64,000 nt of DNA from a virus (taxonomy: Duplodnaviria; Heunggongvirae; Uroviricota; Caudoviricetes), in IMG/VR virus record IMGVR_UViG_3300014204_000107, positions 203,468 through 267,467 of that record. One strand, written 5' to 3'. The translations under genes were made by a program, and so were the position numbers. Positions 6,655-62,559 of this stretch are shown here, piece by piece; within the stretch, counting starts at the first letter, position 1, and each line of letters starts with the position of its first letter. The notes below the pieces were generated by a model. It worked only from the letters and a program-made list of their open reading frames with translations. It did no database searches and was not told the origin of the DNA.

Positions 6655-6897
6655 ATGAACAAACAAGAATTAAAACAATTAATAAAAGAAGAAATAAATA
6701 ATGTGCTAAAAGAATCAGTTGCATCTATGGCTAAAGTTGATATATATTATAGATATAAAAATGGTAAAACTGGTAGTTTATTTATTACGCATGCAAATGT
6801 TGATTTAGAAGAAATTCTCAAGGAATATTTCACAGATACACAATATTTGTCAAGTGATACAATAATAGATTCTGTAACAATAGAGGAGATCAGTTAA
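6655..6897 (+). CDS. Leader-tagged small protein
   Basis: MNKQELKQLIKEEINNVLKE; GGAG SD. Confidence 0.75.
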   Translation: MNKQELKQLIKEEINNVLKESVASMAKVDIYYRYKNGKTGSLFITHANVDLEEILKEYFTDTQYLSSDTIIDSVTIEEIS

Positions 6898-9558: not shown

Positions 9559-12500
9559 ATGGAAGAAGAAAAACAAAGTGCATTTTTCGATGGTTTAAAT
9601 AAGATGATGTCATCTGCAGTCATGATTCGGGGCACTACCGATAAGAAACTGCGAGTGATAGACTTAAATAAAGTTCAAGTCCAATCGAATTTGGAAACTA
9701 ATAGGTTAATAGACCGTTTTGCACGCGTTATTATGCCAATTAGAACATATGGTTATGACTATTCATATGCATTCCAAGGGTCCAGAATTGAAATATACAG
9801 GGACTATGAACAAATGGATATGTACCCCATATTGTCCAGTGCTCTTGATATTTATGCTGATGAATGTATAGGATCCGCAACAATTGTGCCAATGGTGGAT
9901 GGCAGAAAAATAACAATCAAAGAATTATATGATAATAATGAAAAGAATTTTTTAATATATGGCATTGATGCAAATAGTAAAAAAATTAAAATAATTGAAG
10001 CAAGTCATATTGCATATAATGGAAAAAAACAAGTATATAAAATTACGCTTGATGATAGCACAGAAATTAAATGTACTGCTAATCATGAGTGGGTTCGATT
10101 TGATAATGAATTAATAAGAACAGATAAATTAGCAGAAGGTGATTGGCTTTGCGCATTACCACAAGAATATCAAATAATTAAAATAGAAAAATTAGAAGGA
10201 TTATCTGATGTATATGATATAGTAAATGCAGGAGACAATCATATATTTGCAATTGAAACTAATGACGGTGGTAAATTATTTACACATAATTGCACTCTAA
10301 AGAACTTATATGGCAGGATTGTGGAAATAAAAACTGACAAAGACTACATAGCCGACTCTCTTAATAATTTATTTTACGATGTTTTAAATATTGACTTTAA
10401 CCTTTGGGCATGGGTGCGAAATCTCGTAAAGTACGGCGATTTTTGGTTAAAAATGGATATCACAGAAAAGCTTGGTATTACTAATGTAATTCCATTATCT
10501 CCATATGGTGTGCAAAGGGTAGAAAACCCAAACAACCCAGAAATGACTGAATTCCATTATGATGCGGCACTTGGCAATTATATGTACGGACAATCATTAC
10601 AGAAATTTAAGAATTATGAAATAGTGCACTTTAGATTGCTTTCCGATATGAACTATTTGCCATATGGGCGGAGCATTTTTGAATCAGCAAGGCAATTATG
10701 GAAGCAAATTGTATTATTACAAGATGCAATGCTTATTCATAAGTTAATGCGTGCGCCAGAACGCCGCGTTATTAAAGTAGATATAGGTAATATACCACCA
10801 GCTGAAGTTGATAACTACATGAATTCAGTTATTAATAAAATGAAGAAAGTTCCATATTTGGATGAAAAGACTGGGCAATATAATTTACGTTTTAATTTAA
10901 TGCCTGTAGCATATTATACGAATATTCCATTATTAGATGGTAGAACTATAACAATCAAACAATTAGCAGAGGAAACGAAGAAAGGCAAGAAAAATTATGT
11001 TTATTCTATAGATAGGGAAAATGATAATAAAATTGTATCTGGAGAGGTTCAGAGATGCGAATTAACTAAAAAAGATGCGGATATTGTTCGTATTTGGTTG
11101 GATGATGATAGTTATATAGATTTTGAATTAGAACATCCAGTAATGTTACGAACTGGTGAATATAAAGCAGCAAAAGATTTAATTGAAAATGATAGTTTAA
11201 TGCCATTTTATAGTAAATTTTCAAATGAAAAAGGCATTAAAGATTATGAAATGATTTTTGACCCAGCAGACCAAATATTTAAATATACTCATAGGGTGAT
11301 TGCTGAGCAATATAATATTGATAATTATATTGAAAATAATCATGTTGTTCATCATGCGGATTTTAATAGAAAAAATAATATTCCAGAAAATTTAGATTGT
11401 AAGATGACATTTGATGATCATATTAAATATCATCGAGATAATATTAAACTTTGGTTAAATACATTAACACCACAACAATGGGAAATCATTAATAAGAAAC
11501 GCAGTGATACTTGGAAAAAGAATAGAATTCTTGGTAAAAATAAATTATGGAACGAGGGAGAAACAAAAGAAACAAATGAATTAGTAAGATTATTAGGTGA
11601 AAATATATCAAAAACATTCACCCCAGAAAAAAAGAAGAAATATGCAGCTAGATTAAGAGGGAAACTAAATCCGGTACACTCAAAATGGATACAAGAAAAT
11701 TTTGTTCCATATGAAAGAACTGAAGAGCATAAGCAAGTATTAAGAGAAAAAATGTCTGGTGATAATAATCCAAATTATGGTAAGACGTGGGAAGAAATAC
11801 ATGGTAAAGAAAAAGCGGAAGAATTAAGAGAAAAAGTAAGTAATGTATCCCGTGATAAATTTTTAAAAAATAATCCAATGAAAACAGATGCTCAGAAAAA
11901 ACGGGCATCCAAAGTTATGAAGTTTGAAAATGGTAAACGGTGGTCAGATAATAATTTTAAAGAAAAAGTAACTATTGCAATGAGTCATACATATGATTCA
12001 TGGTTGATTGAGCAAATTAAAAAACAAATAAAATTATGTAATTTAAAAAATCTTAATGAAATTGTTAATCATTTAAATAAATGTAATGATATTGTTTCTT
12101 ATTTTGCAATTTTGAATGAAACAAAAAAAGGAACTGGTAAATTTTCAAGACATTCTATTGCAAAATTTGCAATCCGATTGGGCTATAAAAATATTGCAGA
12201 ATTAATTTTAGATGTAAAAAATAATTATATTATCAATCATAAAGTCAAGAAGGTAGAATTTTTAACTGAAAAAATTGATGTATATTGTATGTTGGTCAAA
12301 GATTATCATAATTTTGCAATTGATAGCCACGGTGGAAATATTCGTGATGGTATTTTTGTAAAAAATACTATGCTTGAAGATTTTTATTTACCAGTTAGAC
12401 CAGGGCAAGTAAATTCATCTATAGATACATTGCAGGGTTTAGTAATGGATTTCACGCCAGATTTAGAGTTCTTATTAAGCCAAATGTTTGCAGCAATAAA

Positions 12501-13359
12501 GATACCCAAAGCATTCCTGGGTTATGAAGAAGGCCTGAGTGCTAAGAATGTTTTATTAACGCAGGATGTAAGGTTTGCTCGCACAATAGAACGCGTTCAA
12601 CGTATTGTAGAATCTGAACTGTATAAAATAGCAATAATACATTTATATTCGCAAGGATATACTGGCGATGATTTAGTTAATTATAAGATTCAATTAACGC
12701 CATCTTCAATATTATATGAAGAAGAAAGAAATACATTATTAACTAATAAAGTTGATTTAGTTGGCAGAATTCGCGAGCAGAACTTATTACCTGATAAATA
12801 CATATATGAAGAATTATTTAATTTCAGTGAGCAGGAATGGCATCAGATGCGCAAGGATATGATTGAAGATTTAAAATGGCAATATAGAATAAAACAAATT
12901 TCTGACGAAGGTGTTGACCCATATGAGGAAGCAAATAAGATTAAAAACTTATTAACAAAGCAAGAAGGTGCTGGTGAGTTTGATTTAGCAAAAGGTGAAG
13001 AACAAGGCGGTGGTGCAGGGGAAGACATATTTGGTGGTAGCTCATTTGGCGGATTAGGTGGTGGCACTGAAACTGAAGGTGGAACGGAAGATATATTTGG
13101 TGCAGGAGAAGTAGGTGGGGCAGAAGGAACGCCCCCAACAGAAGGTGGACCAGAAAATATTACCGCTGGATATAAGAGTGGTAAAAATTTATTATATTCT
13201 CCAAATAATATAATAAGATTAAAATTAACAAACTATATTAAACAGCGGGGCAATACTAAATCATCAAAGTATATATTGTCTGAAGTACTCAACCAATTAG
13301 AGCATGAGCAGGAAGATATTTTTAACTCTGGCTATTTTGACGAAAAAAACTTAGAATAA
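9559..13359 (+). CDS. Portal protein (T4 gp20-like) containing two inteins
   Basis: ALDIYADE, YGRSIFE, RAPERRVIKVDIG, MLEDFYLP, KIPKAFL motifs; directly follows terL. Confidence 0.93.
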   Translation: MEEEKQSAFFDGLNKMMSSAVMIRGTTDKKLRVIDLNKVQVQSNLETNRLIDRFARVIMPIRTYGYDYSYAFQGSRIEIYRDYEQMDMYPILSSALDIYADECIGSATIVPMVDGRKITIKELYDNNEKNFLIYGIDANSKKIKIIEASHIAYNGKKQVYKITLDDSTEIKCTANHEWVRFDNELIRTDKLAEGDWLCALPQEYQIIKIEKLEGLSDVYDIVNAGDNHIFAIETNDGGKLFTHNCTLKNLYGRIVEIKTDKDYIADSLNNLFYDVLNIDFNLWAWVRNLVKYGDFWLKMDITEKLGITNVIPLSPYGVQRVENPNNPEMTEFHYDAALGNYMYGQSLQKFKNYEIVHFRLLSDMNYLPYGRSIFESARQLWKQIVLLQDAMLIHKLMRAPERRVIKVDIGNIPPAEVDNYMNSVINKMKKVPYLDEKTGQYNLRFNLMPVAYYTNIPLLDGRTITIKQLAEETKKGKKNYVYSIDRENDNKIVSGEVQRCELTKKDADIVRIWLDDDSYIDFELEHPVMLRTGEYKAAKDLIENDSLMPFYSKFSNEKGIKDYEMIFDPADQIFKYTHRVIAEQYNIDNYIENNHVVHHADFNRKNNIPENLDCKMTFDDHIKYHRDNIKLWLNTLTPQQWEIINKKRSDTWKKNRILGKNKLWNEGETKETNELVRLLGENISKTFTPEKKKKYAARLRGKLNPVHSKWIQENFVPYERTEEHKQVLREKMSGDNNPNYGKTWEEIHGKEKAEELREKVSNVSRDKFLKNNPMKTDAQKKRASKVMKFENGKRWSDNNFKEKVTIAMSHTYDSWLIEQIKKQIKLCNLKNLNEIVNHLNKCNDIVSYFAILNETKKGTGKFSRHSIAKFAIRLGYKNIAELILDVKNNYIINHKVKKVEFLTEKIDVYCMLVKDYHNFAIDSHGGNIRDGIFVKNTMLEDFYLPVRPGQVNSSIDTLQGLVMDFTPDLEFLLSQMFAAIKIPKAFLGYEEGLSAKNVLLTQDVRFARTIERVQRIVESELYKIAIIHLYSQGYTGDDLVNYKIQLTPSSILYEEERNTLLTNKVDLVGRIREQNLLPDKYIYEELFNFSEQEWHQMRKDMIEDLKWQYRIKQISDEGVDPYEEANKIKNLLTKQEGAGEFDLAKGEEQGGGAGEDIFGGSSFGGLGGGTETEGGTEDIFGAGEVGGAEGTPPTEGGPENITAGYKSGKNLLYSPNNIIRLKLTNYIKQRGNTKSSKYILSEVLNQLEHEQEDIFNSGYFDEKNLE
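9865..10290 (+). mobile_element. Mini-intein 1 in portal (142 aa, no endonuclease)
   Basis: Starts CIGSAT..DG; block B TANH; block F VYDI; ends HN followed by Cys(+1). Confidence 0.9.
10903..12366 (+). mobile_element. Intein 2 in portal with HNH endonuclease; starts with Pro (class-3-like)
   Basis: Removal restores RFNLM|TMLEDFYLP. Starts PVAYYTNIPLLDG; HNH motif VVHHADFNRKNN; block F VYC; ends KN followed by Thr(+1). Confidence 0.85.
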
Positions 13360-13407: not shown

Positions 13408-14256
13408 ATGAAAAGCAACCACGCAAAGCTTAAAAATACGGGCATATTATTTGAATTGCTTGTTAGGCAGGCTACAAGTGATATAATTTCCGAAAAAGAA
13501 TCAAAAGCAGTTAATATTATTAGACGATTCTTTAAAGAAGGCACGGAACTTAATAAGGAGCTAAAGCTATACAAAACATTAACTGAAGATAAATACCACG
13601 ACGCCAGAAAAGCTGAGAATTTTATTGAGGTAGTATTGTCTGAACGCAAGAAAATTAATAACACCCAATTAAAGAGTGAAACATATAATCTTGTTAAAGC
13701 AATTAATGAAGCATATACTATTGATTTTTACCAAGCAAAAATTAATAATTATAAAGTATTAGCTTCAACTTATAATTTATTTGAATATGTATTGGGACGC
13801 TCGGTACCTCCAACTGATGTGGTAAATTCAAAATTTACTATATTAGAACATATCGCAGCCAAACAAGCAGAAAAGAATGAAGTAAAAGATAAGGTGCTTG
13901 AAGCTTATGACCAGCAAGATAAAGATATTAGATTGCTCGCTTATAAGTTAATGATTGAGAAATATAATCAGAAATATAACGCGCTTGATAACAGGCAAAA
14001 ACGATTATTAAGAGAATATATTAATAGTGTTACTGATAGTCCTAAATTAGCTGAATTTGTTAACAATGAAGCAAACATTGTTAAATTTGAATTAAAGAAA
14101 TTATTGAAGAAAGTGGACGATGAAGTAATGCAAGTTAAGCTTGAAGAAACAATAAATCAAATTGATAAGCAAGTAATATGCAAATCTGTAAAAGAAGACC
14201 ATATATTGCAGTTAATGAAATATTATGAATTGGTAAAAGAATTGCAACAAATATAA
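13408..14256 (+). CDS. Probable prohead core/head assembly protein
   Basis: KNTGILFELLVRQ motif; helical; located between portal and protease. Confidence 0.55.
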   Translation: MKSNHAKLKNTGILFELLVRQATSDIISEKESKAVNIIRRFFKEGTELNKELKLYKTLTEDKYHDARKAENFIEVVLSERKKINNTQLKSETYNLVKAINEAYTIDFYQAKINNYKVLASTYNLFEYVLGRSVPPTDVVNSKFTILEHIAAKQAEKNEVKDKVLEAYDQQDKDIRLLAYKLMIEKYNQKYNALDNRQKRLLREYINSVTDSPKLAEFVNNEANIVKFELKKLLKKVDDEVMQVKLEETINQIDKQVICKSVKEDHILQLMKYYELVKELQQI

Positions 14257-15161
14257 TGGAACATAAAAGAATATATACAAAATCATTACATGACCGCTTT
14301 AGACGCTCAATTGAGTATGATAGTACTTTAACAAAGCCGAAAAAGTCGCCAAAGAAACGAGCACAAGAGCATGAATGGGATGAAATGAATAAAGAAAGCG
14401 GGCATAAAAATCCAAAAGATATAGAGGAAAGCAATATGAATCAAGAAGAACAATTAAGAGAAATGATTCGTGCAGCAATAAAGGAAATATTTGCTGAAAC
14501 AAACGAAGAAGAGCAACTTAATGAATTTATGGCAACGGGAGCACCAGCAGGAGCTGCACCAGCAGCAGGTGGTTCTAATGCCGCACAAGGTCCATACCAA
14601 ACGCCTGCAGCATTTAATAGAAAGAATACAAGCACTGATAATAAAGGTACTAAATCTTCTACTAATGCTGGATGGACTAAAGTCGATGAAAGCCAACCAC
14701 ATAGGTGGGGCATTAAATACGGTGAAGCATCAACTGAATATGAACGTGCAAACCCAAGAATGTATAGGCTAAAGAACGAAGTTAAAACTATTAATGAAGC
14801 AGTAAAGAAATCAGCAAACGATGATAATTTTGAAAAGTTATACAGGAAAGCATGTAAGCATTTTGAAGTTGAAGAATTAGTAGATTTAAAGCCTGAAAGG
14901 TATGAAGAAGCTATTGCATATATGAATAAACTAACAGATGCAGATGATGCAAGAATAACTAAACAACAAGTTAGAAAAGCAGCAATAAAAGAAGCATTTG
15001 GGCAAATAATAACTGAACAGTCATTTACAATTGTAAATAATGATAATATTGATAAGATTGCCGATTATATTGCAAAATATAGGACTGATAAAACTATGAC
15101 CCCCCATAGAATTGCACGAGACATATTACGAATTATTGAAAATATGATGAATGGAGTATAA
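14256..15161 (+). CDS. Hypothetical head-associated protein
   Basis: Degenerate leader QLREMIRAAIKE; several LNE/INE/ITE motifs; true start may be ~14436. Confidence 0.55.
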   Translation: MEHKRIYTKSLHDRFRRSIEYDSTLTKPKKSPKKRAQEHEWDEMNKESGHKNPKDIEESNMNQEEQLREMIRAAIKEIFAETNEEEQLNEFMATGAPAGAAPAAGGSNAAQGPYQTPAAFNRKNTSTDNKGTKSSTNAGWTKVDESQPHRWGIKYGEASTEYERANPRMYRLKNEVKTINEAVKKSANDDNFEKLYRKACKHFEVEELVDLKPERYEEAIAYMNKLTDADDARITKQQVRKAAIKEAFGQIITEQSFTIVNNDNIDKIADYIAKYRTDKTMTPHRIARDILRIIENMMNGV

Positions 15162-15164
15162 TAT

Positions 15165-16877
15165 ATGATTAAACAATCAATAGGGTATTCAGCAATACCA
15201 TTTATAGTAACACCACAACAGTTACAAGAGTCAATGCGTAAGAACAATGGCATTGTTATTGTATCCGGTGTTATACAGCGTGCTGATTCATTAAACCAAA
15301 ATAAGCGCAAATATCCTAAACAAATATTATTGCGTGAAGTAGAAAGGTATAATAGTGATTTTATTAAACAAGGCAATGCCCTAGGTGAGCTTGATCACCC
15401 GGACTGCGTTCTTCCTGATACCAAGATACTTACAAAAGATGGTTGGAAATATATTAAAGATATATCAGAAGACGAAATAGTTGCAACACTGAATACCGTT
15501 ACTAACGAATTAGAATATCAACAAATAGTGCGAAAAATAGAACAGCATTATGCTGGTGAAATGATTGAATTTAAAAATGCAGTTTTTAGTGCATGTGTGA
15601 CGCCAAATCATAAATTTTATGTTATGCGAGGGGTCGACCGGCAGCGTGGTGAGTTTATTGCAGCAAATGAATTATATAAAACTGACGTAATTAATAAAAA
15701 ATGCAAATGGCAGGGTACTGACCAATTAGTTATGACATTTCCAGCAACTGGTATTAAAGAATCTTATTCTGTTGATACGGAGGCATTTTGTAATTTTTTG
15801 GGTTGGTATATAGCAGAAGGATATATTAGTCAATATAAAGGTAATATGGTGTATATTAGTCAATCTAAAAAAGAAGGCAAAGAACAAATAATTGCAATGT
15901 TAGATCAAATGCCATATCACTGGAATTATTATGTTGGTAAAAATGATGAGTGGGTATTTTATATTATTGATAAGGCATTATATGAATATTTAAAACCATT
16001 GGGTGGCAGTTATGATAAACATATACCGCAAGAAATCAAAAATCTTTCACCCAAATATTTAAAAATATTATTACGTTCATTAATGTTAGGAGATGGTACT
16101 ACAAATGGAAATGATTATTATACTGTTTCTCCTCAATTGGCCAGTGATGTTAGTGAGATAATTATTAAATGCGGATTATCAGCATCTATTACTGAGATTG
16201 ATAGAATTGATAATTATTATGTTATTAAAAATAAAGAAACTGGTGAAATTGAAACAATTAATAATATTTATTGGTACACCAAACCAAAATATGCAATTAA
16301 AGAAAATTTTGAAATTGTTGATAAAATAAAAAAGAAAAACGGAAAGATAATGTATATAATAAGAACCAAAGATTCTTCACATTATTTTTTTAATGAAATG
16401 GATAAAACCATTATTGATTATGATGGTATGGTATATTGTGTAGAAGTCCCAAACCATACTATATATTTAATGCGCGATGGTAAACAATTTTGGTCTGGCA
16501 ATTCAAGTATCGTTGAATTAAAAAATGCTTCACACCGCATATTAGAAGTATGGTGGAGTGGTGATGATTTATTAGGTAAGATAGAAATATTGCATGATGT
16601 AACACCGGCAGGGCACATATTATATAAATTATTTGAACGTGGCATTAAAGTAGGTATATCATCAAGGGGATTAGGTTCAGTAAAGCCTATTAATGAAGAC
16701 GGGGCAGTGGAAGTACAAGATGACTTTGAATTAGTTGCTTGGGACTTTGTTTCCAATCCATCTACCCAAGGTGCATATATGACAATGTTGCATGAAGGCA
16801 TTGACCCAGCAAATATGAACTTACATAAATTTATGAAAATGGAATCTATTATAAACTCAATATTAAGAGGTGAATAA
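15165..16877 (+). CDS. Prohead protease (T4 gp21-like) containing one intein
   Basis: NQNKRKYP, GELDHP (catalytic His), GISSRGLGS (catalytic Ser), DFVSNPS. Confidence 0.93.
   Translation: MIKQSIGYSAIPFIVTPQQLQESMRKNNGIVIVSGVIQRADSLNQNKRKYPKQILLREVERYNSDFIKQGNALGELDHPDCVLPDTKILTKDGWKYIKDISEDEIVATLNTVTNELEYQQIVRKIEQHYAGEMIEFKNAVFSACVTPNHKFYVMRGVDRQRGEFIAANELYKTDVINKKCKWQGTDQLVMTFPATGIKESYSVDTEAFCNFLGWYIAEGYISQYKGNMVYISQSKKEGKEQIIAMLDQMPYHWNYYVGKNDEWVFYIIDKALYEYLKPLGGSYDKHIPQEIKNLSPKYLKILLRSLMLGDGTTNGNDYYTVSPQLASDVSEIIIKCGLSASITEIDRIDNYYVIKNKETGEIETINNIYWYTKPKYAIKENFEIVDKIKKKNGKIMYIIRTKDSSHYFFNEMDKTIIDYDGMVYCVEVPNHTIYLMRDGKQFWSGNSSIVELKNASHRILEVWWSGDDLLGKIEILHDVTPAGHILYKLFERGIKVGISSRGLGSVKPINEDGAVEVQDDFELVAWDFVSNPSTQGAYMTMLHEGIDPANMNLHKFMKMESIINSILRGE
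15405..16502 (+). mobile_element. Intein in prohead protease with LAGLIDADG endonuclease (366 aa)
   Basis: CVLPDTKILTKDGW start; TPNH; FLGWYIAEG and LMLGDG motifs; ends GN followed by Ser(+1). Confidence 0.9.
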
Positions 16878-19376: not shown

Positions 19377-19622
19377 ATGGATTTACAACCAAAGAAAGGA
19401 AAAGTAAGCTATTTTGGCAACAATGTAAAAGTAATTAATGGTAACATTGATGAAGCATTACGCAGATTAAAAGGAGCAGTAAAAGATTCTGGTGTTATGT
19501 TTGAATTAAAGCAACGGCAAGAGTTCTTACCGCCATCTGCCATAAAAAGAGAAGTTAAACAAAAGGCTATTAGAAAGCAACAATTAATTAGTTTACGCGA
19601 AAAAGAAGACAGATTAATATAA
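19377..19622 (+). CDS. rpsU: Phage-encoded ribosomal protein bS21
   Basis: VKVINGNIDEALRRLKGAVKDSGVMFELKQRQEFLPPS matches the bS21 pattern (ALRRFKR...GV..E.R.REFYEKPS); basic C-terminus. Confidence 0.85.
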   Translation: MDLQPKKGKVSYFGNNVKVINGNIDEALRRLKGAVKDSGVMFELKQRQEFLPPSAIKREVKQKAIRKQQLISLREKEDRLI

Positions 19623-24499: not shown

Positions 24500-25030
24500 A
24501 TGAACCGTGATAATTTAAATATAGTAAAAAAAGGCATTAGACGCATTATTTGTGAAGTATTAGATGAAACATTGAATACTATACAAAAAGTGGGGTGGTC
24601 TTATGATGGTGAAGCACAGTTCACAGCCAGCAATGGTAAAGAATATAATATTCAAATATATCCACTCCATTTGATAGTTGTGAATTCGAGGGCGAAGAAA
24701 TTATTAAATATTGGAAAGAAGCTACTGGGGGATGATTTATGGTTAAAGTTTTATGCATTTGGATATATTATTGGGTTTGCTGATGAATATGAACGAGATA
24801 CCATATTAGGCACTGGTAATGCTGCAGAAATTTTTAGTATTGTTGGTCATGCTGTTATAGATAGAATAAAGGAGAAAGATATTGAATATATTTGCTTCGA
24901 TGCAAAAGAACCAAGTAGAAAAAGATTATATGCAAGGCTTGCCCAATTATTAGCAAAAGAATTAAATTATAATTTAGTAATATCCCCAGATGGTGGTATA
25001 TTTTATTTATATACAAAGGAGTTAGCATGA
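24500..25030 (+). CDS. Hypothetical protein
   Basis: Degenerate leader IRRIICEVLDE; GTGNA...SRKRLY segment. Confidence 0.6.
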   Translation: MNRDNLNIVKKGIRRIICEVLDETLNTIQKVGWSYDGEAQFTASNGKEYNIQIYPLHLIVVNSRAKKLLNIGKKLLGDDLWLKFYAFGYIIGFADEYERDTILGTGNAAEIFSIVGHAVIDRIKEKDIEYICFDAKEPSRKRLYARLAQLLAKELNYNLVISPDGGIFYLYTKELA

Positions 25031-28429: not shown

Positions 28430-29653
28430 ATGGCATATGCACAATATGAACAAATAGATATATGGAAAGATAGTCCGCAAGTAATAACTGCTACTAATGG
28501 ATTAACTCCGTGGGGTTATTACGATGATGACAGTGCATTTCAAATAGATGCATATAATTTTTCCAAATTTGCTGCTAGGTGGCTCGGATATCCTATTATT
28601 GATATTGAATTGCAAGATATAAATTTTTATACTGCATTTGAAGACGCAGTAAATGAATATGCCAACCAAGTTAACCAATTTAATATTAAAAGTTATTTAT
28701 TTTCATTGCAAGGATTGCCAACTGCGTCAATACAAGATGGCAATTTAACGCATAAACATATTGCTTCCAATTTAACAAATACAATGTTGATATCTAGCCA
28801 ATATGGTACAGAAGTTGGATTGGGCCCAAATGCTAAATGGTATGCGGGTGAAATTAATATAGTTATGGGTGAACAAGATTATGACTTGACTCCCATTATG
28901 GAAGCAGCGGGTGGTGAAGGATTTACATATGAAGTTCGTAGAGTATTCCATGAAGCACCACCAGCAATTGTTCGTTATTTTGACCCGTATGTTGGTACTG
29001 CATTAGCAAATGCAAATTTAATGGAATCATTTGGTTGGGGTGGTATGTCCCCTGCTATTAACTTTATGATGATGCCACTATATGGTGATATATTAAGAAT
29101 TCAAGCAATTGAAATGAATGACCAAGTTAGAAAATCTGCATATTCATTTGATATTAAAAATAATGTTTTAAAAGTATTTCCCGTTCCAAGTCGCGATTAT
29201 ACTACATATTTTCAATTTGTAAAAGTTGAAGAAAAGATGAATCCGTTCATGCTTGGCAGGAAAGAATTTAATAGCTATTATGGCAAAAACATGCCGACGG
29301 GCAATGGATTAATAGCTGACTTTTCAAATATACCGTATATGGCAATGTCATATGGTCAAATAAATTATCCAGGTAAACAATGGATTAGGCAGTATGCGTT
29401 AGGCAGTTCTAAAGAAATGTTAGGTATGGTTCGTTCTAAATACGCACAAATACCGGGGCCTAATGAAAATGTTACATTAGATGGTGATACACAGAGAAGT
29501 GAAGGTGCAGCAATGAAAGCAGACTTAATTACAAAATTAAGAGAAATGCTTGAAGCAACAACACAAACAGAGCAATTAAAACGCGAGCAAGAAAAAGCTA
29601 CCGCAATGGTAGAAATACTAAATAAAATTCCACTCCCGATTATAGTGGCATAA
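28430..29653 (+). CDS. Neck/head-completion protein (T4 gp13-like)
   Basis: LGYPIIDIEL, WIRQYALGSSKEMLGMVRSKY, VTLDG motifs. Confidence 0.8.
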   Translation: MAYAQYEQIDIWKDSPQVITATNGLTPWGYYDDDSAFQIDAYNFSKFAARWLGYPIIDIELQDINFYTAFEDAVNEYANQVNQFNIKSYLFSLQGLPTASIQDGNLTHKHIASNLTNTMLISSQYGTEVGLGPNAKWYAGEINIVMGEQDYDLTPIMEAAGGEGFTYEVRRVFHEAPPAIVRYFDPYVGTALANANLMESFGWGGMSPAINFMMMPLYGDILRIQAIEMNDQVRKSAYSFDIKNNVLKVFPVPSRDYTTYFQFVKVEEKMNPFMLGRKEFNSYYGKNMPTGNGLIADFSNIPYMAMSYGQINYPGKQWIRQYALGSSKEMLGMVRSKYAQIPGPNENVTLDGDTQRSEGAAMKADLITKLREMLEATTQTEQLKREQEKATAMVEILNKIPLPIIVA

Positions 29654-29668
29654 AACGCAGGAGGCACC

Positions 29669-30235
29669 ATGGATAAGTTGCAAGAATATGAACAAAAAAA
29701 AGACCAATTAGAAGATAAATTTGAACTTTTATCTAAAGAATATAATGCATTAAGGCACGCGGATGATTATAGGGGATTTGGCTGGGAATTTGATGTCAAA
29801 CTCCATAATGTAGTAATGCCGCATGATTTAAGGGAATTATTTAAATTATATCCAGATTTAGAAAATGAATCAATAGATATATTTGAAGATTTTATTGCAA
29901 TTAAAGCAGATGATTTAGTATCAGATTTACAGAGAACATTTAATTGGATTGGTGAAGGATTTCAAGTAGGTAGAGGTAGCGGATGGCTTGTATTAATTGA
30001 TAGAGATTATGAAAATTATGAATATAATATGAGCGAAATTGTGAATAACATATATTATAATGACTTTGAAGAAGCAGATAACGCGTTTTTAGATTGCTAT
30101 TCATATGTTAACGATAGAGCAGCCGAACTTAAAACCATTAAATCATATATTCACGAATATATTGGCAATCTTGGTGACTGGTTTTATGGTTATCTTAAAG
30201 AAAAAGGCATAATAAAAGATTATACAGGAGAATAA
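29669..30235 (+). CDS. Hypothetical protein
   Basis: ORF with GGAGG SD. Confidence 0.6.
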   Translation: MDKLQEYEQKKDQLEDKFELLSKEYNALRHADDYRGFGWEFDVKLHNVVMPHDLRELFKLYPDLENESIDIFEDFIAIKADDLVSDLQRTFNWIGEGFQVGRGSGWLVLIDRDYENYEYNMSEIVNNIYYNDFEEADNAFLDCYSYVNDRAAELKTIKSYIHEYIGNLGDWFYGYLKEKGIIKDYTGE

Positions 30236-30536
30236 TATGAAATTGGCTGAATTGAAACAATTGATTAAAGAATGCATTAATGAAGAAATAATTGCAGAGG
30301 GGGCAAGAATTAGATGGCGAAATTTACGAGTTGGTGATTATTTAATATGCATTAAAAATAAATTTGATGCTAAATTAGAGGTAGGGAAAAAATATAAAAT
30401 TATAAGTGTGTCTGAAAAAATGCATAGAATTTCAATTGAAATAGATGATAATCATATACCACACGGAATCACTGTTCCATCACCATATTTAACTCAATTT
30501 AGATTAATAAAAGATTATATAGGAGAATAATATGAA
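30210..30536 (+). repeat. 32-nt direct repeat (30210-30241 and 30505-30536) flanking the 30237 cassette
   Basis: TAATAAAAGATTATA(C/T)AGGAGAATAATATGAA, one mismatch between copies. Confidence 0.85.
30237..30530 (+). CDS. Leader-tagged small beta-rich protein
   Basis: MKLAELKQLIKECINEEIIAE. Confidence 0.75.
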   Translation: MKLAELKQLIKECINEEIIAEGARIRWRNLRVGDYLICIKNKFDAKLEVGKKYKIISVSEKMHRISIEIDDNHIPHGITVPSPYLTQFRLIKDYIGE

Positions 30537-30786
30537 CAAATTAGAATTAAAACAATTAATTAAAGAAGAAGTTAGAATTGCATTGCAAGAAGATTCAAAC
30601 GAAGAAAGATTGGCAAAATTGAAGCAATCTGACCCAAAAATATTTCAAATAATAGACGCAGTAAGGGCAGCCGATAAAATACCAGAATCAGAAATTGATT
30701 ATATTGGTGAGCGTGATTATATAGCATATAATGCCGTGCTAAATATTGTTAGGGTTAAAAGAATTGAAACGCCATATGACGATTAA
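30532..30786 (+). CDS. Leader-tagged small protein
   Basis: MNKLELKQLIKEEVRIALQE. Confidence 0.75.
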   Translation: MNKLELKQLIKEEVRIALQEDSNEERLAKLKQSDPKIFQIIDAVRAADKIPESEIDYIGERDYIAYNAVLNIVRVKRIETPYDD

Positions 30787-30811: not shown

Positions 30812-31312
30812 ATGCCCTTATTTGGCGGTAAAAGAGATATAAGTTTATTTAGATTCATTAACAGGGAGTTAATTAATAAGATAGTTGACACGGCAGTTGA
30901 TGTATATAAGATAAGTTTATCTTCAACCAAGGCAAATTTATATGGAGAATCAACTAATAAAATTTATAAAGTAGCATTACGTTTACATTGTTTAGTACAT
31001 GACTTAAGAGAGCAAGAAATGAGCTATGAGGAATATGGCGTCACTGTAAACCAAAACGTTAATTTTACATTCTTAAGAGATGAATTAATGGATAAACAAT
31101 TAGTAATGGAGGCAGGAGATATAATTCAATGGAATGAAAAATATTGGGAAGTAGATACAGTAGTTGAAAATAAATTGTTTATAGGCAAAAATCCAGATAC
31201 AAATAAAGATTATGATGGCACGCATGGTTGGGATGTGGGTATAACGTGCAATACACATATGACAAGAAGAACAAAACTTAATATTGAACGTGCCAGAGCA
31301 GGCAATAATTAG
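30812..31312 (+). CDS. Head-closure/neck protein (gp14-like)
   Basis: NLYGES and GDII.W..KYWEV motifs; located between the gp13-like and gp15-like genes. Confidence 0.65.
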   Translation: MPLFGGKRDISLFRFINRELINKIVDTAVDVYKISLSSTKANLYGESTNKIYKVALRLHCLVHDLREQEMSYEEYGVTVNQNVNFTFLRDELMDKQLVMEAGDIIQWNEKYWEVDTVVENKLFIGKNPDTNKDYDGTHGWDVGITCNTHMTRRTKLNIERARAGNN

Positions 31313-31321
31313 GAGTATAAT

Positions 31322-32629
31322 ATGAAATTAAAAGAATTAAGGCAATTAATAAGAGAATCTATTCAAGAAGTATTACTTGAAAGCTACGGTGACGGACTTA
31401 AACAGTTTGAAACAGATAATTATCATTTTAATAATCGAAATTCTTTTGATATTGCTGTTAAAAATATCAATAAATATTATAAAGATATAGATGTTGGTCA
31501 TTTTGATATGATTATTTCCCTTCCAAAAGGCAGTAAAATAGTTGATAAATTTGGTGTATCTGCTGATAGTTATAAACTAATTGATGAGGTGGTTCAAGAA
31601 ATATTGATGGCATCTCCTATGGAAAGCAAGCATTTTTATGATTCTCACCGAGATATCATATTACAAGATATAGAGCAATGGGCAAGTGAAAGCATGACAC
31701 TAACAGATGTAGCATTGGAGTTAGGATGGGACGAAGAGTCCGCAGCAAATAATTCTGATAGTACATTATATGGTGATTATGCAATACATATTGCAGGTAA
31801 TTACGATAAATATATTGGTAATCTAGAAGAGATTGAAGGAATGATAGATTTAAGAAATGATGTTAATGAAGAAGTATATAAAACAGGCGTAGATTCATCC
31901 AAATTTACTACTGCCGAAATAAAAGTAAAAATTAAACAGTTAGAAGATGATATAGAAGCATCAAAGAAAAGAAATGGGTCGGATGAATTCGTTCAAAGCA
32001 GGACTAAAATACTTAATAAATTTAAAGATGCATTAAATAAGACTAATGAATCAGTAGCAAGACCAAAAAGGAAATTTTTACGCGAATCTATTGATTTTAC
32101 CCAATTACAAAAAGGGCAACGATTTATCTTTACACATAAATATTCAGGCAAACAGCTTACTTTAGCCTATAAAGACGATGAAATATATAGCGGACAAAAA
32201 CTATATAATTTTAAAGATGTTGATACAAAACGTGAATATACAGATACAAAATATGGATTTAATGAAAAATATGATATAGATAAATTGCCGGATGCAGAAA
32301 CTACAAGAAAAGGCGGAGGACCGAAAGGGCCAACTGGCGCAAGAGGACCACGCAAATATTATACTAATTTAAGTGATAAGTATGCTAATAGATTAATTAA
32401 AGACTTTGTGCAACCATGGAAGTGGGAATTAGAACAATGGGGTGCAGAAGGTAGTGCTGATGCATTAAATGGTGGATTACCATATTCTAAAAAGCACTAT
32501 TTAGATTCAATTAGGGGATTTTTTCAAGATAACGGCGGAAAGAGGGAAGATAGTATTTATATATGGATGAAAGCATCAGGAATCGAAAACCCAGTGCAAT
32601 ATTTATTTGATGAAATGAGTTCAAGTTAA
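31322..32629 (+). CDS. Leader-tagged multi-domain protein
   Basis: MKLKELRQLIRESIQEVLLE; internal VNEE/TNES/LRES spacers. Confidence 0.7.
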   Translation: MKLKELRQLIRESIQEVLLESYGDGLKQFETDNYHFNNRNSFDIAVKNINKYYKDIDVGHFDMIISLPKGSKIVDKFGVSADSYKLIDEVVQEILMASPMESKHFYDSHRDIILQDIEQWASESMTLTDVALELGWDEESAANNSDSTLYGDYAIHIAGNYDKYIGNLEEIEGMIDLRNDVNEEVYKTGVDSSKFTTAEIKVKIKQLEDDIEASKKRNGSDEFVQSRTKILNKFKDALNKTNESVARPKRKFLRESIDFTQLQKGQRFIFTHKYSGKQLTLAYKDDEIYSGQKLYNFKDVDTKREYTDTKYGFNEKYDIDKLPDAETTRKGGGPKGPTGARGPRKYYTNLSDKYANRLIKDFVQPWKWELEQWGAEGSADALNGGLPYSKKHYLDSIRGFFQDNGGKREDSIYIWMKASGIENPVQYLFDEMSSS

Positions 32630-32640
32630 TAGGAGAGTAT

Positions 32641-32964
32641 ATGACAAAGCAAGAATTAAAACAATTGATTAAAGAAGAGCTTAAAATTGCTTTAAAAGAA
32701 AGCAAAATTGATTATCAAATATATCACGGATCATATTCTTCTGCAATACAAACTGCAATAGAATATGCTAAAAAACGAGGGTATGATGTAGACGAAGATG
32801 ATATATGGAATAGAATATCTGTTGGGCCTGCGAAACCGCAGGATGGTAAAACAAATAGATTTAGTATTTCATTGATAAAAGATGGCAAAGAACAAAAGAA
32901 AACATTAAATATACAAATATATGGTATGGGTAATAAATATGAATTAAATTGCTATATTAGCTAA
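32641..32964 (+). CDS. Leader-tagged small protein
   Basis: MTKQELKQLIKEELKIALKE. Confidence 0.75.
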   Translation: MTKQELKQLIKEELKIALKESKIDYQIYHGSYSSAIQTAIEYAKKRGYDVDEDDIWNRISVGPAKPQDGKTNRFSISLIKDGKEQKKTLNIQIYGMGNKYELNCYIS

Positions 32965-33782
32965 TGTCAAGAAGACTTAAAAATAAAACACCTGCAGCTG
33001 CCACACAAGAAGAAATTTTTACTGGCATTCAAACACTTGAAACAGAGGATAGGGCAACCCATATTCGAGAAGATGCAACAATAAAGCAAACACCTGATTT
33101 CACTGTTACTTTGCTTGATATAGATGAGGCAATTGAATATTATTTTAAAAATATAATCATACCAAAAGTAGAAGATAATGGCAGTATAATAGATGTACCA
33201 ATAGTATATGGCACACCAGAAAAGTGGAAAGCAATGCAAAAAGATGGTTATTACCATGACCAGCAAGGTAAAGCATTAATACCATTAATAATGTATCGTA
33301 GAAGCTCTATGCGGAAAAATAGAACTTTAACAAGAAGCCAAGACGCAAATAATCCAAGGTTACATTATTATTATGGTGCTATATATTCACCAAAAGATAG
33401 GTATGATAAATTTTCATTACTCAATGGCAGCCACCCACCTAAACAGCATAAAAAGGTAGTTGTGCCAGACTACGTGACCCTAGCATATGACTGTATAATT
33501 TGGACTGACTATGTAGAACATATGAACAAAATACAAGAGGCAATTGAATATGCTGAAAGTTCATATTGGGGAGATAAAGAACGGTACCAATTTTTATGCA
33601 CTATTACTGACTTTGCACAAGATTCATCGAGCAATGCAGGTGAAGATAGAACTATAAAATCTACGTTTACGATTAATTTACTTGGATATTTAGTACCAGA
33701 CGCATTACAAAAAGAACTTACAAAACATTCCGGCTTAGATTTTTCTCTTTCAAAAATCATTTTTTCTGAAAATTTAAAATAG
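32964..33782 (+). CDS. Tail terminator/sheath stabilizer (T4 gp15-like)
   Basis: VPIVYGTPEKW, P.YV.L.Y...IW motifs; located before sheath. Confidence 0.7.
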   Translation: MSRRLKNKTPAAATQEEIFTGIQTLETEDRATHIREDATIKQTPDFTVTLLDIDEAIEYYFKNIIIPKVEDNGSIIDVPIVYGTPEKWKAMQKDGYYHDQQGKALIPLIMYRRSSMRKNRTLTRSQDANNPRLHYYYGAIYSPKDRYDKFSLLNGSHPPKQHKKVVVPDYVTLAYDCIIWTDYVEHMNKIQEAIEYAESSYWGDKERYQFLCTITDFAQDSSSNAGEDRTIKSTFTINLLGYLVPDALQKELTKHSGLDFSLSKIIFSENLK

Positions 33783-38439: not shown

Positions 38440-38748
38440 ATGGGATATGTATATTTAATAGAGGCGTCAGATAATAATCAAACCATATATAAAATTGGAT
38501 ATACCAAGCATAAATTTAAAAGTAGAATACAAGGATTGAATACTGGCACAGCTGCCGATTTAAAAGAATTATATAAATTTGAAACAAAATATGGTAGATT
38601 GCTTGAAACATCTATGCATAATTTTTTAAAACATAAGCAAGTTAAGCGAGAATGGTTTGATTTAGACATTAATGATGTAATTAATTTTTTGCCGATGTGT
38701 AAGAAGATTGAAAATAATTTAGATATAATATCGAGGAATATAGCATGA
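38440..38748 (+). CDS. GIY-YIG family (T5orf172/MUG113-like) nuclease
   Basis: GYVYLI...YKIGYT...R...L...E...H...EWF. Confidence 0.8.
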   Translation: MGYVYLIEASDNNQTIYKIGYTKHKFKSRIQGLNTGTAADLKELYKFETKYGRLLETSMHNFLKHKQVKREWFDLDINDVINFLPMCKKIENNLDIISRNIA

Positions 38749-39515
38749 ATAAAATGGAATTAGTTCAATTAATTAGAGAATGCATTAATGAAGAAATATC
38801 TAAATTTAAAGGTAATACAATTCGCTTAACTGAAGGTGGCAACGTATTTAAAAATGCTGATAATACTCCTGCGACAACAAGAATTAATAAAGAAGATGTA
38901 CTGCCGACTATTAAATGGTTGGAAAGTATAACAGGGTTGCCATTAGTAAATAATACACTTGGTAGTACTGGCATAGCTGCTCAATCTGGAGATTTAGACC
39001 TGGCAGTTGACGTTAATAAAATATCTAAACAAGAATTAGAAACTATTTTAAAACAATGGACTGCTAAAAATGGGCTTGATCATAGACTATTTATAAAAAA
39101 GACTGGTGATTCTGTGCATTTTAAAACACCAATTGTTGGAAAAACAGGAGAATATGTGCAGACAGATTTCATGTTTAGTGATAATTTAGAATTTACGAAA
39201 TGGCGTATGCGAGGCACGAGCCCAACATCAAAATACAAAGCACAACATAGAAATATATTAATATCGAGCATAGCAACATCATTAGGACTTAAATGGTCAT
39301 ATTTTAATGGTTTGGTAAGTAGAGAATCTGGTAAAGTAATAACAGATAACCCAGATGAAATAGCTGAAATATTATTAGGCCCCGGGCATACTGATAAAGA
39401 TTTAATATCTGTTGAATCCGTATTAGATGCAATTAAAGACTTGCCGAATAGGGATAAATTAATTGCAGACGCTAAAGAAACATTAAGTAGATTATATAAT
39501 GTAAATATTGAATAG
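38745..39515 (+). CDS. Leader-tagged Pol-beta-superfamily nucleotidyltransferase-like protein
   Basis: MNKMELVQLIRECINEE...LTE|GGNVF; LGSTG...SGDLDLAVD (GS...DxD); VQTDF. Confidence 0.65.
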   Translation: MNKMELVQLIRECINEEISKFKGNTIRLTEGGNVFKNADNTPATTRINKEDVLPTIKWLESITGLPLVNNTLGSTGIAAQSGDLDLAVDVNKISKQELETILKQWTAKNGLDHRLFIKKTGDSVHFKTPIVGKTGEYVQTDFMFSDNLEFTKWRMRGTSPTSKYKAQHRNILISSIATSLGLKWSYFNGLVSRESGKVITDNPDEIAEILLGPGHTDKDLISVESVLDAIKDLPNRDKLIADAKETLSRLYNVNIE

Positions 39516-39871: not shown

Positions 39872-40846
39872 ATGAAATTAAGCGAACTCAAACAGTTAAT
39901 TAGAGAATCTATCAAAGAATACCACGAAGACGCAATATCTGATAGTGAAGAATATCTATATACTGGTGCTTCACAAATAACAAATGCTGGTGATGGATTA
40001 TTTACTGCAATCGATATATACAAAGGAGAAATAATTAGTGAATTTAAAGGTGAAGTTCTTACTTATCAGCAATCATTAGAAAGAAAAAAAGAAAGTGGTG
40101 ATGATTATTTTATGGATTTGCCGAATGGCAAGGTATTAGATTGTAAAAGAACAAATGGATTTGCTAAATATGCTAATGATGCAGAAGGTTTTGGTGCAGG
40201 ACCACATAAAAATAATGCAAGAATTGAATTAGTATATGCTAAAGTTTGCTTGGTTGCTACAAAAAATATAAAAGCAAACAGTGAAATATTTGTTGGATAT
40301 GGCAAGAATTATTGGAATAATTTTAAAACAAAACATGCTATGACGGAAGAAGTAAACAATGAATTACCCAAATTAGTTTTATTAGTTGGCATCCCAGGCA
40401 GTGGTAAATCTACTTGGATTAATAGTAATAAACCAAAATGGAAAAATACAATAGTAATATCGCCAGATAATATAAGAAGAACAATGCTTGGTGATGTTAG
40501 TTCGCAGGCAGATAATAAAGCAGTTTTTGATATGGCAAAGAATAATACAATAGACGCATTAAAGAAAGGTACTAATGTAGTATTAGATGCAACGAATGTA
40601 AATACTCAATTACGAAAAAATTGGGTTAATAGTGCGCAAAGTCAAGTTAATTGCAAATTACAAGCTAAATTATTTTGGGTAGATAAAGAAAAGGCATATC
40701 AAAGAATATCTAGGGATATTGTAAATAAAGTTGATAGGGCAAACGTACCAAAAGAAAATATAGATGTAATGTATATTCAGTTTCTGCAATCTGTAAAACA
40801 TTTAAAAAGTGAAGGATATGAAATTATTAGAGATTATTTAGAATAA
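39872..40846 (+). CDS. Leader-tagged SET-domain methyltransferase fused to P-loop kinase (AAA_33/PNK-like)
   Basis: GDGLFT..DI.KGE, AKYAND, ATKNIKANSEIFVGYG (SET). LVGIPGSGKST, ISPD.IR, VVLDATN (kinase). Confidence 0.8.
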   Translation: MKLSELKQLIRESIKEYHEDAISDSEEYLYTGASQITNAGDGLFTAIDIYKGEIISEFKGEVLTYQQSLERKKESGDDYFMDLPNGKVLDCKRTNGFAKYANDAEGFGAGPHKNNARIELVYAKVCLVATKNIKANSEIFVGYGKNYWNNFKTKHAMTEEVNNELPKLVLLVGIPGSGKSTWINSNKPKWKNTIVISPDNIRRTMLGDVSSQADNKAVFDMAKNNTIDALKKGTNVVLDATNVNTQLRKNWVNSAQSQVNCKLQAKLFWVDKEKAYQRISRDIVNKVDRANVPKENIDVMYIQFLQSVKHLKSEGYEIIRDYLE

Positions 40847-40924
40847 AAATCAGCTAAAAAAAGAAGAGAAAAAATATTAACGACTATATATAAGCAGTAA
40901 CATAAAATATAAAATGGAGAAAAC

Positions 40925-41308
40925 ATGATGAAACGAAATACCAATGATACGTTTGATTATTATTTAGGAATAACTTCTGGCTCAACGTATGCACCATATA
41001 AACAATATACTTGTTTATTAGATGTGAGTTCAGTATTTACTTCATCTGCAACGGTATTAAATAATACATTAGGATCTACTGTAGCTTGGTCGTATGATGC
41101 ACCAAATGCTGCTCTTTTAGCAATTGCAGCAAATAAATTTACGGCAAATAAAACATGGATTTTAACTGGCCCGGCCGTAGCAACAGGTTCAACGGCAGCA
41201 TCATCTTCTGTTCATGTTATTGGTATTTGGGTTAACGCAAGTACTTGTAGTTTTTCAGCAAGTGCAGTACCATTTATTAAATCACCTATTGAAATAAGGG
41301 TGTACTAA
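40925..41308 (+). CDS. Hypothetical Ser/Thr/Ala-rich (probable structural) protein
   Basis: GGAG SD; composition; upstream promoter-like motif. Confidence 0.55.
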   Translation: MMKRNTNDTFDYYLGITSGSTYAPYKQYTCLLDVSSVFTSSATVLNNTLGSTVAWSYDAPNAALLAIAANKFTANKTWILTGPAVATGSTAASSSVHVIGIWVNASTCSFSASAVPFIKSPIEIRVY

Positions 41309-41392
41309 AAATAATTTAAAAAATATGTCTTTTTTTATTATGTAATATATATAATAGAAGCAAAGATAACAATAAATAAAAGGAGATGCTAA

Positions 41393-41884
41393 ATGGCACA
41401 ATTAATTTCCCCAAACGAAATTTTCTTCACTAATTTTGAACCTAAGGTTAAATTCCGTTTCATCATGTATGTAGATGGCATTCCGGCATATCTTATCAGA
41501 AAAATAGATAGACCAAAAATTGAATCCCAAGAGATTGAATTACCGCACATCAATGTACAAAGATGGGTTAAAGGTAAATCAAAATGGAGTGAAATTACAA
41601 TGGAACTCTATGACCCAATTGTACCTTCTGGCGCGCAAATTGTAATGGAATGGATACGATTAGGCCACGAATCAGTAACCGGCCGCGATGGTTATTCCGA
41701 TTTCTATAAGAAAGATGTAACTATTAATGTACTTGGCCCCGTCGGTGATAAAGTAGAAGAATGGATTTTAAAGGGAGCCTGGGCCAAAACATTTGACGGC
41801 GGTGACTTAGATTGGGCCGATGAATCTACATTTGTAGGTATCACTTGTACAATAAGATATGACTACGCACTGCTAAACTACTAG
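41393..41884 (+). CDS. Tail tube protein (gp19-like)
   Basis: FEPKVKFRF, W..IT..LYDPI, EEWILKGAW, YDYA motifs. Confidence 0.9.
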   Translation: MAQLISPNEIFFTNFEPKVKFRFIMYVDGIPAYLIRKIDRPKIESQEIELPHINVQRWVKGKSKWSEITMELYDPIVPSGAQIVMEWIRLGHESVTGRDGYSDFYKKDVTINVLGPVGDKVEEWILKGAWAKTFDGGDLDWADESTFVGITCTIRYDYALLNY

Positions 41885-41980
41885 ATTTTATGCTATAGTA
41901 GCACTATTTAGATTAATACGCAATATTAGCAATGGTTTTTAGTGAAGTAATTCATTAAGAACATTTCTATATATATTGGT

Positions 41981-61350: not shown

Positions 61351-62559
61351 ATGGCAAAAACTACTAATGGTAAATCCGGCAAGGCTTCGAAAGAAGCCTT
61401 GCCTGTTTTAGAAAAAAAGAATAACAGTTTAGACATATTAGCTACTGTTCTTAAAAATGAACTAGAAAAGCAATTTAAGGGAGAAAATGTATCCTATTAT
61501 TTAGATGGTTCAGAAGATACGCCAGCTGACGTATTAGATTGGATTTCTACTGGATCAACACTCTTAGATGTAGCAATATCAAATAGAATAGACGGAGGAC
61601 TACCTACTGGTCGTATAGTAGAATATACCGGACTTGAGGGGAGCGGAAAAAGTTTAGCTGCAGCACATGCAATTGCTAACACACAAAAAAAAGGTGGTAT
61701 TGGAATTTTAATAGACACAGAAAATTCTATTTCGAAAGAATATTTAACAGCAGTTGGTGTTGATTTAAATAAAATGTTATATGTTCAATTAGATACAGTT
61801 GAAGATATTTTTGATGCTATTGAAAAAGTAATATTAAAAGTCCGCACAGAATATCCAACTAAGCTTGTTACTATTGTTATTGACTCTTTAAGTGCTGCGT
61901 CTTCAAAAGTAGAAATGGAAGCTGGGTATGAAAAAGAAGGTTATGGAACAGCAAAGGCAGCATTAATTAGTTTGGCAATGAGAAAATTAACTTTGGTTAT
62001 TGCTAAATATCGTATTCTTCTTATTATTACTAACCAATTACGTTTTAAAGTTGGCCAAATGGTTGGGTTTGGTGGAGATCCATACACAACTTCAGGTGGC
62101 AAAGCCGTGGCATTTCACTCAAGTGTGAGGGTAAGATTTAAACAAGTTGGTAAGATTAAGGGGGATGTAAATGGCATTGAAAGAATAATTGGTGTTAATA
62201 GTATTGGTGAAGTAATAAAAAGTAGAGTTGGGCCACCACATGGTAAAGCAGAATTCAATATTTATTTTGCAAGTGGAATAGATGACTATGGCGGATGGTT
62301 TGATACGTTGAAAAAACATAAAATAATTACAGGCGGTGCAGCAGGTAAATATGAATTAATTGATGAATCTACTGGCGAAGTAATTGATATTAAATCAACA
62401 ACTTTTACTCAGAATATGAGAGACAATGAAGTAACGCGTAATAAAATAAAAGCAATATTATGTAATAAATTTATTATGCCATATTCAAATATTAATACTT
62501 TTGACTTAGATGCTGTTAAAGTAGCGGCACCAGAAGATGATGTTGCAGATGAATCATAA
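61351..62559 (+). CDS. uvsX: RecA/UvsX recombinase
   Basis: ISTGS..LD, GGLP.GRIVE..GLEGSGKS, IDTE, IDSL, NQLR, GGKA..FHSSVR. Confidence 0.92.
   Translation: MAKTTNGKSGKASKEALPVLEKKNNSLDILATVLKNELEKQFKGENVSYYLDGSEDTPADVLDWISTGSTLLDVAISNRIDGGLPTGRIVEYTGLEGSGKSLAAAHAIANTQKKGGIGILIDTENSISKEYLTAVGVDLNKMLYVQLDTVEDIFDAIEKVILKVRTEYPTKLVTIVIDSLSAASSKVEMEAGYEKEGYGTAKAALISLAMRKLTLVIAKYRILLIITNQLRFKVGQMVGFGGDPYTTSGGKAVAFHSSVRVRFKQVGKIKGDVNGIERIIGVNSIGEVIKSRVGPPHGKAEFNIYFASGIDDYGGWFDTLKKHKIITGGAAGKYELIDESTGEVIDIKSTTFTQNMRDNEVTRNKIKAILCNKFIMPYSNINTFDLDAVKVAAPEDDVADES

Follow-up and report, generated by a model that had tools for sequence, protein, structure and literature searches.

We analyzed a 32-nt direct repeat (R) that brackets t97, a small leader-tagged gene located among the late structural genes of a 299-kb T4-like phage, and that joins at each of its copies the end of one gene to the start of the next. 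The R pair is real and non-random, and very probably it is a recombination footprint of some kind. A more specific reading, in which we have fair but lesser confidence, is that R is the scar of a cargo-cassette recombination that added or exchanged the tagged gene t97. A recombination scar is the most likely origin of R because, in other phages with the same tag, close relatives gain, lose and swap genes at such repeats.

The repeat and its genomic setting

The phage genome is a single contig of 299,351 bp with 32% G+C and a 123-bp terminal overlap. The window, i.e. the whole stretch of 64,000 nt that was analyzed, corresponds to its positions 203468-267467, and all coordinates refer to the window unless genome positions are indicated. 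The genes and sequence elements relevant to this work are the following:

15165-16877, + strand: T4 gp21-type prohead protease (Peptidase_S77), split by an intein-like insert
28430-29653, + strand: gp13-like neck/head-completion gene (PF26809), the conserved left border of the island
29669-30235, + strand: A188, an ORFan of 188 aa without leader, the last seven codons of which lie inside R
30210-30241, + strand: copy 1 of R, comprising the 3' end of A188 (…IKDYTGE), the stop codon, the Shine-Dalgarno (SD) sequence and the ATGAA of t97
30237-30530, + strand: t97, a leader-tagged ORFan of 97 aa bracketed by R, leader subtype MKL.ELKQLIKEC.NEE
30249-30272, + strand: DNA of the t97 leader core (ELKQLIKE), matching the t84 core (30544-30567) in 22 of 24 nt
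30505-30536, + strand: copy 2 of R, comprising the 3' end of t97 (…IKDYIGE), the stop codon, the SD and the ATGAA of t84
30532-30786, + strand: t84, a leader-tagged ORFan of 84 aa, leader subtype MNK.ELKQLIKEE…LQE
30812-31312, + strand: core gene of 166 aa at the gp14 position, the right border of the island
31322-32964, + strand: second island, with the leader-tagged genes t435 (31322-32629) and t107 (32641-32964)
61456-62283, + strand: RecA/UvsX-type recombinase (PF00154, E 1.4e-50)

The late genes follow a T4-like structural order: portal, gp21-type protease, acidic scaffold-like protein, gp23 major capsid protein and gp13-like protein and, downstream within the same module, the 166-aa gene at the gp14 position, a gp15-like gene and the tail sheath. 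The nearest isolated phage is Flavobacterium phage vB_FspM_immuto, to which a 6-kb query aligned over only 12% of its length, at about 66% nucleotide identity. The Peptidase_S77 match of the 570-aa protease ORF falls into two parts (profile positions 44-94 and 95-189), separated by about 370 inserted residues whose borders are intein-like. The portal ORF (9559-13359, 1266 aa) also appears interrupted by intein or homing-endonuclease-like segments. Between the scaffold-like gene and a tagged gene there is a basic ORF of 81 aa (19377-19622).

The comparison loci were recovered with the gp13 homologue, at 37-47% identity. In nearly all of them (43 from IMG/VR and 65 from metagenomes, with four exceptions) the gp13, gp14-position and gp15 genes are contiguous, whereas in the studied phage A188, t97 and t84 separate gp13 from the gp14-position gene. 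Since about 100 relatives have these two genes side by side, the three intervening genes constitute a derived, lineage-specific accessory island. The second island (t435 and t107) sits between the gp14-position gene and the gp15-like gene (32964-33782). Word-index searches of 5.8 billion proteins returned A188, t97 and t84 only as their own homologues, and A188 had no match in IMG/VR. An exhaustive HMMER search with the t97 payload gave weak matches only (E 2.5e-8 to 7e-5), to repeats in large proteins and to no informative family; its AlphaFold2 model, computed from the single sequence, had a mean pLDDT of 50.3, too low for use.

The two copies of R match in 31 of 32 bases, the sole difference being C versus T at position 16, and their spacing (the repeat period around t97) is 295 nt. 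Both copies are read in the identical frame: two nucleotides of an isoleucine or leucine codon, I-K-D-Y-(T/I)-G-E, the stop codon TAA, a single T and ATGAA, with the AGGAG of the SD encoded by the codons for G-E. The chance expectation for such a pair is 0 (100 dinucleotide-preserving shuffles, up to three mismatches), and no third copy occurs on either strand of the whole 299,351-bp genome at up to eight mismatches. The initial annotation of this DNA had described the repeat at these positions, spanning a gene end, SD and start codon so that two unrelated proteins end alike, and this description was exact: A188 and t97 show no protein similarity outside their last eight residues, and they are the sole real gene pair of the genome with a common C-terminal heptapeptide. 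The borders of R are of two kinds. On the 5' side, the similarity between copies drops abruptly to random level, next to the 97% DNA identity of R itself. On the 3' side, the ATGAA is followed by a divergent patch of about 10 nt with an offset of one codon between the copies, beyond which the leader cores match again (22/24 nt, as listed above). The 5' 16-17 nt of R, which encode the ends of unrelated proteins, are absent from every other junction; the other 21 leader genes have only the SD in common with the R junction and do not have the 5' half of R.

The same structure is found in the Logan assembly SRR6484787, which is 100% identical over 20.3 kb, and in the JGI metagenome contig 3300035208, which differs by four SNPs in 2,581 nt, none of them within R. 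As two independent assemblies show it, the structure is not an assembly artefact.

Two readings of R that involve no recombination were considered. First, A188 and t97 might be old tandem paralogues of which only the tail is still recognizable. The genome does carry paralogues in tandem, namely the pairs at genome positions 40783-41888 (183/185 aa) and 1071-1711 (100/113 aa), each with near-identical internal DNA repeats of 31 nt, and these pairs show that local duplication is active in this genome. However, A188 and t97 are unlike beyond the tail, the leader is present in t97 and not in A188, and an identity of 97% within R beside random-level similarity upstream is incompatible with uniform divergence. 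Paralogy was thus rejected, and we regard it as highly improbable. Second, R might be a selected functional cis element, such as a late promoter, an RNA processing site, or a signal for translational coupling or re-initiation. The genes follow one another closely, without an intervening terminator, and the 3' 15 nt of R (SD, spacer and ATG) resemble other junctions, e.g. those upstream of the genes at 6655, 16879 and 31322. Plausibly, only these 15 nt are under functional constraint. Against a functional role for the whole repeat, (i) only two copies exist in 299 kb at up to eight mismatches, (ii) the 5' half is missing from the other 21 leader genes, (iii) the RNA folds no better than shuffled sequence around either copy (z 0.3-0.4), (iv) there is no excess of promoter-like sequences (31 found, 35.9 expected), and (v) R, searched as an exact or a degenerate-codon DNA pattern, gave no matches in IMG/VR or in JGI metagenome contigs. 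A cis element is therefore improbable; an RNA hairpin at R was rejected on the folding result, and a sigma-70-type promoter or terminator in R was rejected because no promoter excess was found and no terminator separates the genes.

The target-site duplication of a transposon was rejected as well. Such an insertion would bring a transposase or terminal inverted repeats and a short duplication (2-15 bp), but the 295-nt unit encodes only the ORF of 97 aa, has no terminal inverted repeats and is flanked by a duplication of 32 nt. Elsewhere in the genome, outside the window (genome positions ~88500-105100), a dispersed motif of about 27-36 nt (…TACTTACCTTTATTCTATAACAATAAA) occurs between genes at least six times and is probably a phage promoter or regulatory element.

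A leader shared by unrelated late genes

The leader of t97 and t84 belongs to a family found at the N-terminus of 23 ORFs of the genome, 16 of them inside the window, as defined by the pattern M-x-K-x-E-L-K-Q-L-I-K-E-E or its variant M-K-L-x-E-L-(K/R)-Q-L-I-(K/R)-E-(C/S). The payloads behind the leaders are ORFans or mutually unrelated. Most tagged ORFs have a further (L/I/V)-x-E near residue 20; t97 carries (L/I)-x-E sites at residues 10-12 (I-K-E) and 19-21 (I-A-E), and t84 at residues 10-12 (I-K-E) and 18-20 (L-Q-E). No Pfam family covers the leader, and a full-text literature search for the peptide found no paper. The 24-aa leader found no counterpart among isolated phages by tblastn, a negative result that is probably due to the shortness and low complexity of the query. 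In IMG/VR, a degenerate DNA pattern of the core was found at 70 loci, at the very N-terminus of an ORF in 62 of them. These loci often form tandem arrays of up to seven tagged genes and, since one array contig encodes a T4-type large terminase and a portal, at least some of the contigs correspond to T4-like phages. Four environmental T4-like contigs (L041, L044, L063 and L064) have tandem arrays of 4-7 small leader-tagged genes, many of them preceded by a ATATTTATA-like motif that could be a late promoter.

Related stretches occur beyond the 23 tagged ORFs. The gene at 38745-39515 has a further leader variant, MNKMELVQLIRECINEE, which fell outside the regular expression used for the tagged-ORF search and includes a 30-nt exact match with the leader at 25027. 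Two untagged ORFs contain leader-like stretches, internally in the case of 14256-15161 (EEQLREMIRAAIKEIF) and near the N-terminus in the case of 24500-25030 (NIVKKGIRRIICEVLDE), which hints that core or scaffold proteins share this helix type.

In T4, an N-terminal capsid targeting sequence (CTS) of 10 residues sends unrelated internal proteins to the prohead core and is cut off by gp21, which cleaves after the motif (L/I)-x-E (PMC9026906, PMC3012670; motif as defined in PMC9026906). By analogy, the leader described here probably acts like the T4 CTS, as a propeptide that targets its protein to the capsid and is then cleaved off by the gp21-type protease. This is the leading reading because the leader is shared, its motif matches, a gp21-type protease is encoded and the tagged genes lie among late genes; the protease at 15165-16877 is the enzyme expected to cut the (L/I)-x-E sites of the leaders.

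At the DNA level, exact matches of up to 30 nt connect the leaders of distant genes. The initial annotation had seen in the leader DNA a dispersed repeat that a phage RecA/UvsX could use to shuffle cargo genes, and had asked whether its conservation exceeds the expectation from codon bias. We compared nine core codons of the 23 leaders with 1,000 simulations drawn from the codon usage of the genome: the fraction of identical residues encoded by the same codon was 0.633, against an expected 0.587±0.035 (z ~1.3). The likeness of the leader DNA is thus accounted for by the constraint on the peptide together with the strong AT-biased codon usage, and the simulation gave no sign of concerted evolution or DNA-level homogenisation among the 23 leaders. 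The leader DNA homology is real but a by-product of coding constraint. Of the original proposal, the phage RecA/UvsX is supported by the recombinase gene (PF00154); conservation beyond coding has to be dropped.

Exchange of tagged genes and the origin of the repeat

The exchange of tagged genes can be followed in other T4-like contigs with the leader. In the IMG/VR locus L040, a tagged gene of 90 aa is directly followed by a tagged gene of 122/147 aa. Between these two, L042 has an extra tagged gene of 91 aa (a 278-nt unit), and in the slot of this cassette L031 has an unrelated tagged gene of 90 aa (279 nt). The L042 cassette is bracketed by an exact direct repeat of 41 nt, in which 10 nt from the end of the upstream gene are followed by the ATG and another 28 nt of leader; L040, without the cassette, has a single copy of the repeat, and its flanks are 100% identical to those of L042 over 275 nt on the left and 200 nt on the right. 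L042, L040 and L031 are therefore a natural set of filled, empty and replaced sites that resolves the recombination joint to single-base precision, and the L040/L042 pair bears the signature of a very recent and precise homologous exchange within the tail, ATG and leader repeat. Besides, the homologue of t90 (a 90-aa gene) in L050 sits between two untagged genes that are adjacent to each other in L022. Taken together, these two sets of loci indicate that each tagged gene is a mobile unit of its own, bordered at the start codon and leader.

We infer that the process seen in L040, L042 and L031 also made R, and the direction and order of the events proposed here have the same standing. The junction module (last seven codons, stop codon, SD and start codon) may have been duplicated when the ORFan t97 was added or exchanged between the neck genes. 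At least one of A188 and t97 would then have gained its C-terminus by recombination and not by descent, the other junction having supplied it with the last seven codons, the stop codon and the downstream initiation region. This transfer of the tail could have taken place during the insertion of t97, upon the arrival of A188 or as a short conversion patch. R and the leader core together leave t97 flanked on either side by interrupted homology of about 60 nt, through which a UvsX-type system could delete, re-insert or swap the 295-nt unit while keeping the translation signals and the tag. The precise loss of t97 is predicted to join A188 to t84 through one R.

The initial annotation had proposed an insertion, or a duplication with replacement, at the SD-plus-leader junction. 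The derived character of the island and the exchange observed among L042, L040 and L031 at the tail, ATG and leader, with one hybrid repeat at the empty site, speak for this proposal. Its simplest form, however, leaves the 5' half of R unexplained: as a crossover within SD, ATG and leader would duplicate about 16 nt (AGGAGAATAATATGAA) and not the 16-nt coding part, the scar reading needs an extra step. Two further observations stand against a scar, namely that the patch between R and the leader core differs, so that the homology is not continuous, and that the leader DNA has no homogenisation beyond codon bias. The variant that would have the island without t97 and with a single repeat left behind, which had been suggested as a check, was not found: no empty site or alternative cassette of the t97 locus was detected among the carrier contigs, all of them at least 99.8% identical. 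All four contigs that encode t84 also encode t97, but as these are all at least 99.8% identical to the window, their co-occurrence is uninformative rather than contrary. The closest relatives recovered in the gp13-based searches have a gp13 identity of 47% at most.

A rival explanation is gene conversion of a patch without gene gain. According to this explanation, t97 was already present and one junction (tail, stop codon, SD and start codon) was copied onto its neighbor, overwriting the original last codons of one of the genes, so that R marks homogenisation and not insertion. It accounts for the common coding tail, which a simple SD/leader crossover does not, and it fits with R being short, sharp-bordered and frame-preserving at two adjacent, functionally equivalent junctions. 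Nevertheless, a conversion tract seeded by the leader homology should include leader codons 2-4, which differ; neither DNA-level homogenisation among the 23 leaders nor any other converted junction pair was found in the genome. We consider conversion without gene gain rather unlikely, and the addition or exchange of t97 remains our preferred reading.

A further direct repeat was noticed outside the window. At genome positions 136563-136620 and 137292-137349, two copies of 58 nt with one mismatch enclose 729 nt. The second forms the 3' end of an ORF of 86 aa that overlaps the next start; the first, an orphan duplicate, adjoins a minus-strand ORF of 235 aa whose N-terminus is GIY-YIG-like. The pair is possibly a further insertion scar.

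Relation to known shuffling systems

Modular exchange of small phage genes has precedents. The T-even internal-protein (IP) loci comprise over 30 variants tagged with a CTS, with which short conserved elements at the junctions are associated, as summarized in PMC2839356 from Repoila et al. 1994, and PeSL-like elements occur at these loci (PMC2839356). The parallels with the present case are clear: a short N-terminal leader on unrelated small proteins (CTS: PMC3012670, PMC9026906), a gp21-type protease with the (L/I)-x-E motif, and genes that vary strongly between relatives and have at their borders short conserved sequences to which the shuffling is attributed. The differences are also several. 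The leader described here appears distinct from the T4 CTS in sequence and is longer (about 12-20 aa, with an ELKQLIKE core); 23 tagged genes spread over the late/structural region here, in contrast to two small loci there; and the repeat reaches into the coding part of the upstream gene. In the studied phage, packaging of the tagged proteins and cleavage of their leaders are predictions.

In phages RB49 and phi1, ORFans flanked by PeSLs are missing in the sister phage, which retains one chimeric PeSL; mini-circles of about 400-1400 bp have been detected, and the crossovers lay in the interval from the -10/SD region to the ATG (PMC2839356). As in those phages (Arbiol et al. 2010, PMC2839356; PMC4122927), a single ORFan lies here between direct repeats of a gene-junction module, PeSL units and tagged cassettes are alike in size (about 300-700 bp), and the filled and empty sites with one chimeric repeat are matched, within the leader family, by L040, L042 and L031. 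R, however, has neither the early promoter nor the stem-loop of a PeSL, and consists of a coding tail, SD and start codon running into a protein-coding leader. Integron cassettes offer a more distant comparison, being promoterless single-ORF units arrayed at a recombination site and expressed from upstream signals, as the tagged genes are. Unlike in integrons, neither an attC-like structured site nor an integrase was seen near the arrays, and the exchange of tagged genes appears to rely on general homologous recombination. By these comparisons, the case of R would be analogous to the shuffling at T-even IP loci and PeSLs and not a new principle.

It is tempting to speculate further that a plug-and-play system for capsid cargo is widespread in aquatic T4-like phages, with the SD-ATG-leader junction as its exchange site and ORF units of about 280-300 bp as the parts that move; we put this broader proposal forward tentatively and hold it to be doubtful. 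Under such a system, promoterless ELKQLIKE-tagged ORFs would move within and between genomes, possibly as mini-circles, by homologous recombination at the leader; each gained gene would automatically be translated, packaged, cleaved and injected; and R would be a fresh scar in a jumbo phage with 23 accumulated cargo genes.

For the annotation of phage genomes, the case carries a warning, as a short tail at the C-terminus of a phage ORFan can have arisen as a by-product of recombination. If the scar reading holds, the logic of the T-even IP loci, in which short junction repeats serve to shuffle variable cargo behind a constant tag, extends to a different leader family, which is common in environmental T4-like phages and present in a 299-kb phage with 23 tagged genes. 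The leader would then serve as a sequence rule by which candidate injected effectors of uncultured phages, anti-defence or host-takeover proteins for example, could be recognized.
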